Part shown: in pieces, positions 32,624-34,782 of the stretch | Layout of the letters: each line of letters starts with the position of its first letter | How positions within the stretch are numbered: position 1 is the stretch's first letter | Source of the DNA: an uncultured bacterium | GTDB lineage: Bacteria; Fidelibacterota; Marinisomatia; Marinisomatales; UBA1611 | NCBI GenBank assembly: GCA_964498175.1 | Contig: CAZCHA010000001.1 | Coordinates: 1 to 40,450 of the forward strand | Direction of reading: 5' to 3' | DNA: 40,450 nt | Notes under the pieces: model-generated | What the model saw: the letters and a program-made list of their open reading frames with translations, nothing else | The model's database searches: none | Told to the model about the DNA's origin: nothing | Translations under genes and position numbers: made by a program

Positions 32624-32770
32624 TCAGGCGATTTGGACGGCGAGTCCAATAATCACTAGAATCAATAAATCAATAAGTAGATTATTAATCTGAAGGAGAT
32701 TAATGTCAACACCAAGAGCAAATGGTGCATTTGCTATCTGTGTATTTTGTAATTTGTATTGATTATTCAT
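32624..32770 (-). CDS. 48-codon small ORF upstream of ilvD: candidate BCAA leader peptide, or a small single-TM peptide
   Basis: Manual translation gives MNNQYKLQNTQIANAPFALGVDINLLQINNLLIDLLILVIIGLAVQIA*. An AAGG lies 9 nt before the ATG. 13 of residues 31-47 are Leu/Ile/Val. It is below the 60-aa track cutoff. No clear U-tract terminator follows it. Confidence 0.35.
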   Translation of the reverse strand: MNNQYKLQNTQIANAPFALGVDINLLQINNLLIDLLILVIIGLAVQIA

Positions 32771-32874: not shown

Positions 32875-34464
32875 TTACTCCCGATAATCTTGTAATTCCC
32901 GTGCAGATGGATCTATCACGTCCGTCCATTTAGGCATCCAAAAGTGTGGGATTAATTTTTCATTCTCTCCAAAATAAGAATCAAAAACTTTTCGGTAGTA
33001 ATAGCTCTCTTTTAAAACAGGTGTACAGTGGCTAATCGTTTTGCTTTTTTGTTGAAATTCATTATCAGATATTTTTTTGTCAACATATGCTTGAATAATA
33101 TGATGCCAAGATTTCTTCTTGGCACTGACGCCATCAGAAAATGCACATTTTCGTCGCCATAATACTTCGTCAGGCAAGATTTCTTGGCCTTCGAATGCTT
33201 GTCTGAGTAAATATTTTTCCAACCGGTTTATGCCATCAAATGATTTTAATTCTGGAGGAATAGATAGGTAATATTTCACAAAAGCTTTATCTAAAAATGG
33301 CGTCCGCGCTTCCAATCCGTTTGAACTAATACTCCGATCGGACCGCAGCACATCAAAATAGTGAATCTCTTCTACCAGTTTTTCACTTTCCTTTTGTAGA
33401 TCTTTTGATGTTGGAGCATTCTTTAAATACACATAACCGCAACAGACTTCATCGGCACCATCACCATTAAAAATCACTTTACAATCAGAGTTTTCTGATA
33501 TGTATTTTGAAACTAGATAATTGCCCACACTAGCCCTAACTGTTGTAGTATCATAAGATTCAATATTATAAATAACTGTTTCAATAGCATCTAAAAATTC
33601 ATCCTCAGATACTTCGATTGGATGATGTTTTGTGTCCAAATAATCCGCCACGGTTTGTGCATATTCAAGATCAATGCTCCCCGGAAGTCCAATAGAAAAT
33701 GAATTGAGTTTTGGTCCTTCATAATACTTATTTACCAAGGCACAAATTAAACTAGAATCCAATCCGCCGGATAAGAGACACCCAATCTCACGTTCTGTCA
33801 TGAGCCGTTTCTTCACTGCATCTATTAATAAAGACCGAATTTTATCGCAAATTTCTTCTTCATTGTGTTCCTGAATTTTGGTACCATTATAATGGAAATA
33901 AGGGTTGAATCTATCTGGGGCGTCGGAGCACCACCAATTCCCTGGAGAGAATGGTATAATTTCTGAACAATGATTCACCATGGGCTTTATTTCTGATGCA
34001 ATCATAAGCTCATTTCCATCTCTGCCCATAAATCCTGGTCGGACACCCATGGGGTCCCGCCCAGCGAAAAGTAGGCCAGTATTTGTTTCGTGTATTACAA
34101 ACATGAATACACCATCTAATTCTTTCACAGTTTTATCAATACCAAATTTTTTAAACATCAGCAAAATGATTTCACAATCTGAACCGGTCACCAAATTGAA
34201 ACCATATTTGTCAGCCAGATCTTTATAATTATAAATTTCGCCATTACAGATCAGAGTGAGTGAAGCATCATTTGGATGTTTCATGGGTTGATCACCCATT
34301 TCTGTTGTACCCATAATTGCTAATCGATGGAACGCAAATAACACATCATTTCCAATCATTTCATGGTGTGTATTATCGGGGCCACGATAACCGATCCGGT
34401 TAATATCATTTTCCAATGAATCCCAATCTTGTTTTTGCCCTTTGTATAAAAATATGCCACACAT
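32875..34464 (-). CDS. asnB: Asparagine synthetase, glutamine-hydrolysing
   Basis: N-terminal nucleophile MCGIF (class-II GATase). PP-loop LLSGGLDSSLI. AGGAAG RBS 8 nt before the ATG. Confidence 0.93.
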   Translation of the reverse strand: MCGIFLYKGQKQDWDSLENDINRIGYRGPDNTHHEMIGNDVLFAFHRLAIMGTTEMGDQPMKHPNDASLTLICNGEIYNYKDLADKYGFNLVTGSDCEIILLMFKKFGIDKTVKELDGVFMFVIHETNTGLLFAGRDPMGVRPGFMGRDGNELMIASEIKPMVNHCSEIIPFSPGNWWCSDAPDRFNPYFHYNGTKIQEHNEEEICDKIRSLLIDAVKKRLMTEREIGCLLSGGLDSSLICALVNKYYEGPKLNSFSIGLPGSIDLEYAQTVADYLDTKHHPIEVSEDEFLDAIETVIYNIESYDTTTVRASVGNYLVSKYISENSDCKVIFNGDGADEVCCGYVYLKNAPTSKDLQKESEKLVEEIHYFDVLRSDRSISSNGLEARTPFLDKAFVKYYLSIPPELKSFDGINRLEKYLLRQAFEGQEILPDEVLWRRKCAFSDGVSAKKKSWHHIIQAYVDKKISDNEFQQKSKTISHCTPVLKESYYYRKVFDSYFGENEKLIPHFWMPKWTDVIDPSARELQDYRE

Positions 34465-34490: not shown

Positions 34491-34525
34491 AAAAAAAAAC
34501 CCCCAAGAATTGAAATTCTTGGGGG
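34491..34525 (-). terminator. Intrinsic terminator inside the asnB 5' leader (attenuator terminator)
   Basis: Minus-strand RNA reads CCCCCAAGAAUU-UC-AAUUCUUGGGGG, a 12-nt perfect inverted repeat (~11 bp usable). Nine consecutive U follow (34499-34491). The U-tract ends 26 nt before the asnB ATG. The plus-strand version has only five U. Confidence 0.8.
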
Positions 34526-34550
34526 TTTTTATTAAAGCTTAACCTTATGG

Positions 34551-34655
34551 TTACAAAGCTTCGCCCCCACTCATATTATTATTGTTATTAATCAAAGTGT
34601 TAAACTGAATCATTTTATTAGGGCGCTTCCGCCATAAGATATTTTGTAATTCCAT
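34551..34655 (-). CDS. 34-codon leader peptide with an Asn5 run (candidate asnB attenuation leader)
   Basis: Manual translation gives MELQNILWRKRPNKMIQFNTLINNNNNMSGGEAL*. Codons 23-27 are aat aac aat aat aat, and 8 of 34 residues are Asn. An alternative start at Met15 keeps the run. The stop codon lies inside a hairpin arm that precedes the terminator. Confidence 0.6.
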   Translation of the reverse strand: MELQNILWRKRPNKMIQFNTLINNNNNMSGGEAL

Positions 34656-34716
34656 GATCAATTTTATGAATAAATTTTAGTGATATCAATAATAAGATTT
34701 ACTTTTTTACTATTCT

Positions 34717-34745
34717 CTAATAATATCATTAATTTTATTAGTCAA
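34717..34745 (-). promoter_or_regulatory. Sigma-70-like promoter candidate for the asnB leader transcript
   Basis: On the minus strand: TTGACT (34745-34740), 17 nt spacer, TATTAG (34722-34717). This is ~60 nt upstream of the leader ATG. The -10 element is weak. Confidence 0.3.
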
Positions 34746-34782
34746 TTTTACCCATTTATAAACGTACTTAATTAGTATTAAT

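Follow-up and report, generated by a model that had tools for sequence, protein, structure and literature searches.

A candidate asparagine-sensing leader-peptide attenuator upstream of asnB in Marinimicrobia

The window analyzed here, a 40,450-nucleotide stretch of DNA, derives from a Marinimicrobia/SAR406 (Fidelibacterota) bacterium, and upstream of its asnB gene lie a short open reading frame containing a run of asparagine codons, an intrinsic terminator, and a competing antiterminator. We consider it probable, at roughly 85%, that this element is a ribosome-mediated (leader-peptide) transcription attenuator that ties asnB expression to the supply of charged tRNA-Asn. It would constitute a new amino-acid class of classical ribosome-mediated attenuation, a function that we infer from sequence comparisons. 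The preliminary description of this region proposed that translation of the Asn-codon ORF chooses between the terminator and an antiterminator in which a G-run pairs with a C-run, and every comparative test that we ran supports this core model.

Organization of the asnB leader

The features of the region are as follows, with positions given in the coordinates of the window.

34689-34661, minus strand: promoter-like TTGATA-N17-TAAAAT (score 10/12), whose -10 hexamer stops 5 nt before the leader AUG
34655-34551, minus strand: leader ORF of 34 codons plus UAA (ATG at 34655, TAA at 34553-34551), peptide MELQNILWRKRPNKMIQFNTLINNNNNMSGGEAL
34640-34620, minus strand: region 1 (codons 6-12), AUCUUAUGGCGGAAGCGCCCU, the putative 5' strand of an anti-antiterminator, containing a GGCG/CGCC hairpin
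34589-34575, minus strand: run of five Asn codons, AAU AAC AAU AAU AAU, the proposed sensing codons
34569-34564, minus strand: UGGGGG (the G-run, core of region 2), 5' strand of the antiterminator, with the same letters as the end of the terminator 3' arm
34562-34534, minus strand: stop-codon hairpin P2, with outer helix AAGCUU:AAGCUU and inner helix (U)AACC:GGUU(A), and UAA 34553-34551 inside it
34569-34520, minus strand: complete antiterminator, in which the G-run:C-run helix closes P2 and an A-rich spacer; mutually exclusive with the terminator
34525-34520, minus strand: CCCCCA (the C-run), partner of the G-run
34530-34491, minus strand: intrinsic terminator, AAAAACCCCCAAGAAU-UUCA-AUUCUUGGGGGUUUUU, with nine U in all
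34478-34473, minus strand: AGGAAG Shine-Dalgarno sequence of asnB; AAGGA-type motifs occupy the equivalent place in relatives
34464-32875, minus strand: asnB, glutamine-hydrolyzing asparagine synthetase B (529 aa), the gene proposed to be regulated

The 34-codon ORF, the Asn run, the repeats, the terminator, the ribosome binding site and the asnB ATG all lie where the preliminary description had placed them. Asparagine accounts for 8 of the 34 leader codons, including the run of five, and the G-run ends 10 nt ahead of the leader stop. The two AAGCUU copies (34561-34556 and 34540-34535), together with AACC and GGUU on either side of the stop codon, form P2, which is stacked under the G-run:C-run helix. 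The terminator stem (34530-34495) has 16 pairs, six of them G-C, and a loop of 4, and is followed by U9 to position 34491; the asnB ATG at 34464 is 26 nt past this U-tract. The open-reading-frame list begins the leader ORF at an upstream TTG rather than at the ATG at 34655.

The leader promoter is more likely to be TTGATA-N17-TAAAAT than the TTGACT-N17-TATTAG motif (34745-34717) put forward in the preliminary description. The latter motif is present, but it coincides with the final codons left from a deleted proC, and related loci L003, L001, L002 and L081 do not conserve it. TTGRYA-N17-TAARAT, by comparison, keeps a fixed spacing to the AUG in all of group A, the group of leaders to which the window belongs, and leaders of the other groups have TTTG...TAnnTTTG-like motifs 8-11 nt ahead of the AUG. 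Because TTGATA-N17-TAAAAT directly abuts the AUG, it implies a leaderless or near-leaderless ORF, with transcription probably starting at or beside the leader AUG. No Shine-Dalgarno sequence precedes this AUG, so translation of the leader would depend on such a leaderless start.

The product of asnB passes the cut-offs of two NCBIfam equivalogs, NF006949 (501.6 bits, cut-off 499) and TIGR01536 (366.3, cut-off 267.1), its N-terminal Cys2 glutaminase domain is intact, and its homologues are Marinimicrobia AsnB proteins. The gene is located in an amino-acid biosynthesis supercluster with thrA, asd, thrB and ilv/leu genes as neighbors. The gene upstream of the leader is divergent in the window, and a co-directional proC occupies this position in L001, L002 and L081; only a proC remnant is kept in the window.

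Conservation and covariation of the leader

We collected orthologous asnB loci in a metagenome scan that was blind to the leader, selecting for a terminator 3' end and then an MCGI start. Three or more Asn codons in a row occur in an upstream ORF at 51 of the 56 Marinimicrobia-type asnB genes and at 2 of 57 controls (Fisher p = 1e-23), although the sequences are mutually related and the counts are not independent events. The remaining five asnB genes have Asn-rich ORFs with NN pairs, and the two controls with such an ORF turn out to be asnB genes of another type. The link of the element to asnB is thus exclusive; in unbiased sampling it is carried by seven of eight AsnB protein clusters (60-84% identity) and by six of ten species-representative Marinimicrobia genomes, and is absent from 5 of the 18 lineages sampled. 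Model R1 has no match in Marinimicrobia loci L004, L006, L009, L061 and L083, nor outside the phylum. Conservation of an Asn-rich mini-ORF and of the alternative pairings upstream of orthologous asnB genes had been proposed as a check on the model, and both are retained.

The 48 distinct leader peptides collected upstream of orthologous asnB genes have diverged almost completely except for their Asn codons, and peptide conservation is restricted to Asn and the residues encoded by the G-run. Asparagine makes up 17-57% of each peptide (mean 27%), compared with 5% of AsnB, and the Asn runs vary in length from 2 to 13 codons but are always in frame. The codon totals (AAU 289 and AAC 93, against AAA 52 and AAG 29) depart from what the A-rich background would favor; inside the runs the third position is a pyrimidine without exception, with AAU and AAC interchangeable. 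Insertions and deletions within the ORF have lengths that are multiples of 3, and none of 102 alternative frames is open over the leader span. These patterns are consistent with translation of the leader ORF.

The pairings are also conserved. A terminator is found in every relative that has the leader ORF, and all 51 non-redundant sequences share a constrained geometry, with 8-11 nt from the end of the G-run to the stop and 21-27 nt from the stop to the terminator. A single alignment of all 47 leaders (A2) failed to bring the stop-codon hairpins of the several groups into line with one another, and we therefore split it into two (A3 and A4). The covariation score for P1, P2 and the terminator is 0.351, compared with 0.210 for shuffled alignments, and none of 500 shuffles reaches it; slid-alignment controls score no more than 0.115. 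The terminator is 89.8% paired, with 4 of 12 pairs altered on both sides. Within group A the outer helix of P2 is 98.5% paired and the inner helix 82.7%, and in the counterpart of this hairpin in groups B-E five of seven pairs are altered on both sides. The G-run:C-run helix (90-95.5% paired) is nearly invariant and thus carries little covariation, apart from one lineage with a compensatory AGGG:CCCU. The test of stem covariation suggested in the preliminary description therefore comes out in its favor for the stop-codon hairpin and the terminator, with one compensatory change in the antiterminator helix.

A covariance model built from groups B-E, leaving out the window's own group, matches positions 34588-34491 on the minus strand with 62.6 bits (E ~1e-9), and this is its only real match in 40 kb; the same model scores 53-61 bits on group-A loci. 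Neither the window nor any of 12 related loci has a match to an Rfam 15 family at its gathering threshold, which answers the question of whether the leader belongs to a known family. Sub-threshold scores, relative to the gathering thresholds, include those of His_leader (RF00514; 33/49), Thr_leader (22.5/55) and Phe_leader (22.6/55), and these matches, His_leader the best among them, are mostly terminator-driven. A T-box was found neither at the gathering threshold nor among the 56 matches listed at E-values up to 10. The full-text literature open to search without subscription contains, as far as we searched it, no Asn leader-peptide attenuator, and the earlier remark that no Asn class was known agrees with both Rfam 15 and this literature.

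Alternative folds and a model for asparagine sensing

The leader region of the window folds with an energy of -49.7 kcal/mol (z = -4.95), and none of 200 shuffled sequences is equally stable. We compared the energies of the two mutually exclusive states, as the preliminary description had proposed: in the nascent RNA of the window the antiterminator fold is predicted at -18.7 kcal/mol and the terminator at -19.9 kcal/mol. Nascent-RNA folds that pair the G-run with the C-run around the stop-codon hairpin are obtained for 51 of 51 relatives, with mean energies of -15.6 kcal/mol for the antiterminator and -17.1 kcal/mol for the terminator.

We also examined folds in which the RNA covered by a ribosome is masked. 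With a ribosome at the stop codon the antiterminator is abolished and the terminator alone folds, in line with the earlier proposal that a ribosome reaching the stop melts the antiterminator; the nascent-RNA fold likewise behaves as the model requires. The companion claim, that a ribosome stalled at the Asn codons leaves the antiterminator in place, is not reproduced by the equilibrium fold of the full-length masked RNA, in which pairing of regions 1 and 2, together with the terminator, wins. Because these full-length folds retain region 1:2 and the terminator with a ribosome on the Asn codons, read-through must be kinetic or steric, relying in this model on the order of co-transcriptional folding and on exclusion of region 1 by steric hindrance or a queued ribosome. 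The Asn run begins 20 nt upstream of the G-run, and a ribosome halted at the final codon of the run would itself sit over the G-run; read-through is therefore expected only when the ribosome stalls on one of the first two or three Asn codons.

Within region 1, the preliminary description noted a small GGCG-GAAG-CGCC hairpin that might act as a pause site. The hairpin exists but is weakly conserved, the local pairing being present in only 66.9% of cells among relatives. The codon 8-12 segment is better explained as one strand of a long-range region 1:2 pairing that would sequester the G-run. In the minimum-free-energy fold of the free leader, region 1 pairs with the G-run and stop-codon hairpin region (34567-34542), and among 22 group-A sequences pairing in the three segments of this helix extends to 90.4%, 95.5% and 78.2% of cells; of the 19 pairs that the segments comprise together, 4 are altered on both sides. 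Region 1 in the window's group is 10 codons upstream of the Asn run and does not overlap it, so masking it would need a queued ribosome or steric exclusion. By-eye inspection of the other groups suggests that the role of region 1 could fall there to a patch rich in C or to the beginning of the ORF.

We propose the following model. When no ribosome is on the leader, region 1 (34640-34620) would pair with 34567-34542, the terminator would form, and transcription would stop before asnB. When asparagine is plentiful, a ribosome would reach the UAA with a footprint covering both the G-run and the stop-codon hairpin; the C-run would then be free, so that the terminator could form and transcription stop. 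When charged tRNA-Asn is scarce, a ribosome would stall on the opening codons of the Asn run (34589-34575). Either this ribosome or one queued behind it would keep region 1 from pairing, and the G-run, lying 20 nt further downstream, would stay exposed. The G-run could then pair with the C-run (34525-34521) as soon as the latter is transcribed, stacked on the stop-codon hairpin, and with this antiterminator in place the terminator would be blocked and RNA polymerase would continue into asnB.

Alternative explanations and related systems

An attenuator of this form might report general translation capacity or ribosome speed rather than asparagine, with the Asn codons merely reflecting an A+U-rich genome. 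AAU-rich sequence arises easily at about 30% G+C, some leaders have NN pairs only, and a ribosome slowed for whatever reason ahead of the G-run would affect the structure in the same way. We nonetheless regard this as unlikely, given the great excess of AAU and AAC over AAA and AAG despite the A-rich background, the pyrimidine third positions, runs that stay in frame at every length from 2 to 13, the enrichment of Asn (27% vs 5%), the restriction of the element to asnB, and the presence of unrelated, independent Asn-rich leaders upstream of other asnB types. A somewhat smaller chance attaches to a terminator that works constitutively, in both directions or leakily and shields asnB from transcription arriving from upstream (from proC in relatives), the ORF being untranslated or irrelevant. 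The hairpin is a palindrome, has A- and U-tracts on each side and scores as a terminator on both strands, proC is co-directional in L001, L002 and L081, and the leader AUG has no Shine-Dalgarno sequence, all of which would suit such a role; in the window, however, the upstream gene is divergent and there is nothing to terminate, and throughout group A a promoter-like element lies between proC and the leader. Moreover, lineages that otherwise share no sequence keep the frame, the run of Asn codons, the placement of the G-run and the hairpin around the stop codon, and a plain terminator needs none of these.

A ligand- or protein-binding switch, such as a riboswitch, a T-box-like tRNA sensor or a target of an RNA-binding protein, could also contain conserved hairpins like P1 and P2 and alternative pairings, the open frame then being incidental. 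We think this very improbable: no Rfam 15 family is detected at threshold in the window or the 12 related loci, there is no conserved unpaired core, codon identity alone is conserved upstream of P1 and the G-run, and translation is favored by indels that come in steps of three bases and by there being only one open frame. Lasso-peptide cyclases are asparagine-synthetase homologues and are often preceded by a precursor gene, with a leaky terminator between the two. On that pattern the product of the small ORF could be the precursor of a RiPP or lasso peptide and the AsnB-like enzyme could cyclize it, with the terminator setting the ratio of precursor to enzyme. The protein does match NF033535 weakly, but at 138.6 against a cut-off of 525, whereas it passes the asnB equivalogs and has an intact Cys2 glutaminase domain; genes for a protease or B protein are absent from the vicinity, where the neighbors are thrA, asd, thrB and ilv/leu genes, and the peptide is unconserved except for Asn and the G-run-encoded residues. 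On the NCBIfam scores and gene context we reject this reading and assign it a negligible probability.

Asn-sensing attenuation may extend further. We give slightly less than even odds to the idea that it forms an unrecognized polyphyletic class, comprising a structurally coherent family spanning the Marinimicrobia/SAR406 phylum, other lineages, and a tandem ilvD sensor. The Marinimicrobia family would then combine a leaderless ORF, a stop codon built into the antiterminator and, in one subgroup, a queued second ribosome that masks region 1. Asn-rich leaders and terminators would have evolved independently before other asnB types, in Holophagae (Acidobacteria) and at least one further lineage, and in the window a second, branched-chain leader-peptide element before ilvD would stand in tandem with the asnB element, giving one cluster two amino-acid-specific ribosome sensors. 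A homologue search places high-GC asnB genes in Holophagae, and the candidates there include cultured Geothrix oryzisoli and Mesoterricola sediminis. The Holophagae leaders have few Asn codons, and some conserve a PPPGW motif; we therefore do not count them as established Asn attenuators.

Leader-peptide attenuation is known for Trp, His, Phe, Leu, Thr and Ile/Val, and more recently for Cys. The asnB leader resembles hisL (RF00514), trpL, leuL, thrL, pheL and ilvL/ivbL in having a short ORF with tandem codons for the end product ahead of a biosynthetic gene. It also shares with the classical enterobacterial attenuators an intrinsic terminator between the ORF and the first biosynthetic gene, an incompatible antiterminator that uses the terminator 5' arm, and a stop codon sited such that a terminating ribosome would cover region 2, while one at the first regulatory codons would leave the G-run free; an upstream strand that would sequester the antiterminator (1:2 / 2:3 / 3:4) may be a further likeness. 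It differs from hisL and its kin in the amino acid and in the phylum (Fidelibacterota/Marinimicrobia, FCB group), and it is not a member of the hisL family at the level of sequence or model (His_leader, 33 bits vs 49). Unlike those leaders, its stop codon is inside a dedicated hairpin that belongs to the antiterminator, its ORF is probably at the 5' end of the transcript and without a Shine-Dalgarno sequence, and in the window's group region 1 is ten codons upstream of the regulatory codons rather than overlapping them.

Other systems respond to asparagine by different means. In Firmicutes, tRNA-Asn T-box leaders bind the uncharged tRNA itself, by way of a specifier loop and the T-box sequence, and involve no translation; the asnB leader would likewise sense tRNA-Asn charging and choose between terminator and antiterminator upstream of an Asn-related gene, but it has no T-box match and is proposed to sense through translation. 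The asnA gene of Escherichia coli is controlled at its promoter by the DNA-binding transcription factor AsnC, with no leader peptide and no terminator, and the two cases would have in common an asparagine-responsive control of an asparagine synthetase gene. Attenuation beyond the classical amino acids is illustrated by the mycobacterial polycysteine leaderless short ORFs that precede genes of Cys metabolism (Canestrari et al., bioRxiv 10.1101/834739). These are similar to the asnB leader in being short ORFs with consecutive codons for one amino acid (10.1101/834739), the leaderless start being predicted for the asnB leader; the latter differs in having a canonical terminator with a U-tract as its output, and in phylum and amino acid.

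If the model is correct, asparagine joins the amino acids sensed by leader-peptide attenuation, and the mechanism extends to an abundant and almost entirely uncultured marine phylum. To our knowledge, no gene regulation has been characterized so far in the Marinimicrobia. Two variations on the classical design, a start that is probably leaderless and a stop codon lying within the antiterminator, are of interest in their own right, and the 48 peptide variants on a single RNA architecture, with Asn runs of 2 to 13, constitute a natural experiment on how run length and spacing tune an attenuator. The working covariance model provides a compact, sequence-defined marker for annotating asnB regulation in SAR406 genomes, and the ratio of leader to asnB coverage in metatranscriptomes could report asparagine (nitrogen) limitation.

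The asnB leader and its gene neighbourhood

Reading of the minus strand between 34300 and 35000 bears out all elements listed in the preliminary description, save for its promoter and pause-hairpin readings.

Elements of the asnB leader, from sequence reading
34655 to 34553-34551, minus: leader ORF MELQNILWRKRPNKMIQFNTLINNNNNMSGGEAL, ATG to TAA
34589-34575, minus: run of five Asn codons, AAT AAC AAT AAT AAT
34569-34564, minus: UGGGGG (the G-run)
34561-34556 and 34540-34535, minus: two copies of AAGCUU, with AACC/GGUU between them, flanking the stop codon (hairpin P2)
34530-34495, minus: terminator stem of 16 pairs, 6 of them G-C, then nine U ending at 34491
34478-34473, minus: AGGAAG

The gene 3' of the leader clears the NCBIfam equivalog models for asparagine synthase B, and its ATG (34464, minus) lies 26 nt past the end of the U-tract. 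Upstream, thrA runs divergently, followed by asd and thrB, so no upstream gene in the window could own the terminator; downstream of asnB on the same strand are ilvD, ilvBN, ilvC, leuB, leuA, leuCD and cimA. Homologues of AsnB carry the names Marinimicrobia, Neomarinimicrobiota or Fidelibacterota (best identity 95%), a group that NCBI assigns to the FCB clade. Folding of the 176-nt leader gives -49.7 kcal/mol (z = -4.95). The terminator at 34491-34534 is a near-perfect palindrome between A5 and U9, and for this reason its plus strand also scores as terminator-like or sRNA-like (RsaE, MicC and others below threshold; 39 bits with R1, a covariance model of the asnB leader element); no plus-strand gene in the window runs into it.

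The TTGACT-N17-TATTAG motif proposed earlier as the promoter is present, but it sits inside a proC remnant and is not conserved, and we reject it in that role. A better promoter-like candidate is TTGATA-N17-TAAAAT at 34689-34661 (minus). Throughout group A, the set of related asnB leaders that includes the window, TTGRYA-N17-TAARAT ends 5 nt ahead of the AUG, and in groups C and D TTTG...TAnnTTTG-like motifs of Bacteroidetes type stand 8-11 nt ahead of it. Because these motifs abut the AUG, the sequences suggest a leaderless or near-leaderless ORF, which would explain the missing Shine-Dalgarno sequence. What remains of proC, the pyrroline-5-carboxylate reductase gene, at 34700-34782 (minus) is roughly its final ten codons, ending NKINDIIRE and a stop. 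As an intact proC occupies this place, between thrA and asnB, in the related locus L081, and C-terminal sequence indicates the same for L001 and L002, we take the gene to have been deleted in the window's lineage; L003 likewise has only a remnant.

A second small ORF, MNNQYKLQNTQIANAPFALGVDINLLQINNLLIDLLILVIIGLAVQIA, lies between asnB and ilvD (32624-32770, minus, with following RNA to about 32585). Its C-terminal LLILVIIGLAV is conserved in four related loci (L081, L002, L003 and L083). Past the ORF there is also a conserved long-range complement, CGCCGUC with GACGGCG (32591-32585), which in L002 has the compensatory form CGCUGUC with GACAGCG. This region has neither a U-tract terminator nor an Rfam match. 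Judged by its sequence, the ORF resembles a leader peptide for branched-chain amino acids that would serve the ilvD-ilvBN-ilvC-leuBACD-cimA cluster.

Conservation and occurrence of the leader

The 48 distinct leader peptides form at least five groups (A-E) with almost no common sequence, as illustrated by MELQNILWRKRPNKMIQFNTLINNNNNMSGGEAL (window), MNYKIFSGHFSVINFSSDFLILFNNNNNNPKGVKAL, MNYKKTNFNNNNVNLFDVGSSV, MIKNNFKINNFNNANQFGMGFLI, MGYTINNNNNNNNNNNNNANNNGVGALV and MNNPNYNDIFVNNNNNNANNRSVGDIV. What is kept is a frame rich in Asn, whose runs span 2 to 13 codons, together with a G-run ending 8-11 nt ahead of the stop codon, a terminator 21-27 nt past the stop codon, and a C-run opening the terminator 5' arm. 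Mean Asn content is 27% (17-57%) in the leaders against 5% in AsnB proteins. AAU and AAC swap freely, none of 102 alternative frames is open, and indels are of 3, 9 or 12 nt within the ORF and 1-4 nt past the stop codon; the ORF bears a clear coding signature.

Among species-representative genomes, a short Asn-rich ORF and then a terminator precede asnB in five of ten Marinimicrobia loci and in none of 70 loci from other phyla; the element is absent from four of the ten, and in the remaining one the sequence ends 39 nt upstream of asnB, within the terminator 3' arm. Eight AsnB protein clusters (about 65-80% identity) were picked without regard to the leader, and seven have the element. A leader-blind metagenome pattern (terminator 3' end, 8-38 nt, ATGTGYGGNAT) yielded 120 loci, including 56 Marinimicrobia-type asnB genes with at least 220 nt upstream and 57 controls (glmS, purF, other amidotransferases and chance matches). 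An ORF with at least three consecutive Asn codons is present in 51/56 of the former and 2/57 of the latter (Fisher p = 1e-23), in line with conservation of the mini-ORF upstream of orthologous asnB genes; the remaining five asnB genes have Asn-rich ORFs carrying NN pairs, and both positive controls proved to be other kinds of asnB.

We also trained a covariance model on groups B-E alone, leaving out the window and other group-A sequences. Its match in the window covers 34491-34588 (minus) and scores 62.6 bits (E about 1e-9); below E = 1 the window yields just one more match, on the opposite strand of the terminator palindrome. The remaining group-A loci score 53-61 bits, and there is no match in five Marinimicrobia lineages without the element or outside the phylum.

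In the Marinimicrobia clade L083-L086 (AsnB cluster P0017, 72% identity) the leader survives only as a decayed remnant without a terminator, and locus L163 retains Asn run, G-run and terminator but lacks an in-frame ATG start. From these sequences the attenuator looks to be in the course of being lost. The upstream arrangement is seemingly the same in both: a divergent SAM riboswitch (RF00162, 55.3 bits, 301-422, minus) upstream of the L163 leader, and homoserine O-succinyltransferase and Cys/Met-metabolism genes at the matching position in L083-L086.

The control loci with Asn ORFs are other asnB types. In L191 (A+T-rich), a terminator follows MKPFFNNNNNTLLH, and pairing is possible between the terminator 5' arm and the stretch around the stop codon (UAAGCGAGG); in L149 and L187 (Holophagae, Acidobacteriota) the ORF ahead of the terminator is MTFASVNFANNNLPPGWMW or MTFASNTMANGNPPPGWSW. 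Counting L223 and L224, also Holophagae, these are unrelated Asn-containing short ORFs, each followed by a terminator before an E. coli-type asnB. Among cultured organisms, Mesoterricola sediminis has MTFVLANVASNHPPPGWSR and Geothrix oryzisoli MTFPCPRFNRNFNNRLPRANRAWAGEGLT, each with a terminator; a third Geothrix has no such arrangement upstream of asnB. Asn-sensing leaders may have evolved independently outside Marinimicrobia, a suggestive but weaker case that we do not count as established, since Asn codons are few and a PPPGW motif, perhaps a ribosome-stalling one in its own right, recurs in some Holophagae leaders.

Alternative RNA structures and a model for attenuation

For 51 non-redundant sequences we folded the nascent transcript, starting at the G-run and stopping where the terminator 5' arm ends. 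In all 51 the G-run pairs with the C-run around P2, with the stop codon in the P2 loop, bulge or stem, in agreement with the proposal that UGGGGG competes for the terminator 5' arm with the stop-codon hairpin enclosed. Mean energies are -15.6 kcal/mol for this antiterminator and -17.1 kcal/mol for the terminators (-18.7 and -19.9 kcal/mol in the window). P2 pairing is retained while its sequence differs between groups (AAGCUU/AAGCUU, UAGCU/AGCUA, UUCCG/CGGAA, UCUCA/UGAGA, UCUUA/UAAGA, UCUCG/CGAGA, CUCGU/ACGAG, CUGUGU/ACACAG and UCCCGU/ACGGGA).

In the alignment of groups B-E, 93.9% of cells are paired in P1, an additional hairpin located after the Asn run and before the G-run (4/6 pairs changed on both sides), 75.3% in P2 (5/7) and 89.8% in the terminator (4/12). 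Covariation scores 0.351, compared with 0.210 for shuffles (none of 500 as high) and at most 0.115 for slid controls. The G-run:C-run helix is nearly invariant; L102/L219, the most abundant lineage, has AGGG:CCCU, a compensatory change leaving a U-G wobble in the terminator. In group A, pairing is 98.5% for outer P2, 82.7% for inner P2 and 95.5% for the antiterminator.

The free leader of the window is predicted to form a 19-pair helix between an upstream strand, region 1, and region 2 around the G-run, sequestering the G-run and leaving the terminator free to form.

Paired segments of the region 1:2 helix
34640-34632 (AUCUUAUGG), minus: pairs with 34550-34542 (CCAUAAGGU)
34629-34625, minus: pairs with 34559-34555
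34624-34620 (GCCCU), minus: pairs with 34567-34563 (GGGGC)

Across 22 group-A sequences these segments are paired at 90.4%, 95.5% and 78.2%, with changes on both sides (e.g. CUUAUGG:CCAUAAG to CUUUCGG:CCGGAAG in L001). The GGCG-GAAG-CGCC hairpin previously put forward as a pause site does exist, but it uses the same bases and is only 66.9% paired, and we therefore read the codon 8-12 segment as an anti-antiterminator strand rather than a pause hairpin.

These parts match classical four-strand attenuation logic, from which we infer a role in asparagine sensing. With the leader untranslated, region 1:2 would form, then the terminator. A ribosome at the UAA would cover the G-run and P2 with its footprint, so that only the terminator could form. 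A ribosome stalled at the first Asn codons would leave exposed the G-run, 20 nt past the first of them, which would catch the C-run before the terminator 3' arm is synthesised. Folds masked for a ribosome at the UAA give the terminator only, as the stall/read-through model of the preliminary description requires. Equilibrium folds with the ribosome masked on the Asn codons, however, still favour region 1:2 and the terminator, so that the choice has to be made kinetically. As region 1 of group A is one ribosome-length upstream of the Asn run, keeping it away would call for steric hindrance or for a second ribosome queued behind the first. Judged by eye, region 1 in groups B-E could be a C-rich patch or the ORF start, located beside the Asn codons.

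Codon specificity and the restriction of the element to asnB speak against a general sensor of translation speed, which we consider unlikely. A plain insulating terminator, which we regard as very improbable, would not account for the conservation of frame, G-run and stop-codon hairpin, and a riboswitch or protein-binding site is scarcely credible, as there is no conserved single-stranded core and the three-base periodicity does not fit. A lasso-peptide precursor was also considered and rejected (cyclase model 138.6 against a cut-off of 525; metabolic gene context).

Relationship to known attenuators

Rfam 15 gives no family at threshold anywhere in the window, including the leader element, or in 12 related loci, and no T-box match in the window; the best permissive-mode match, His_leader (33 bits; gathering score 49), is mostly terminator-derived. 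The earlier impression that no Asn class is known agrees with Rfam and with the literature searched in full text, where no asparagine attenuator of the leader-peptide kind turned up, including in a premature-terminator survey, an Actinobacteria survey and a mycobacterial polycysteine study. The proposed mechanism is classical; what is new is the amino acid, the phylum and some details of design.
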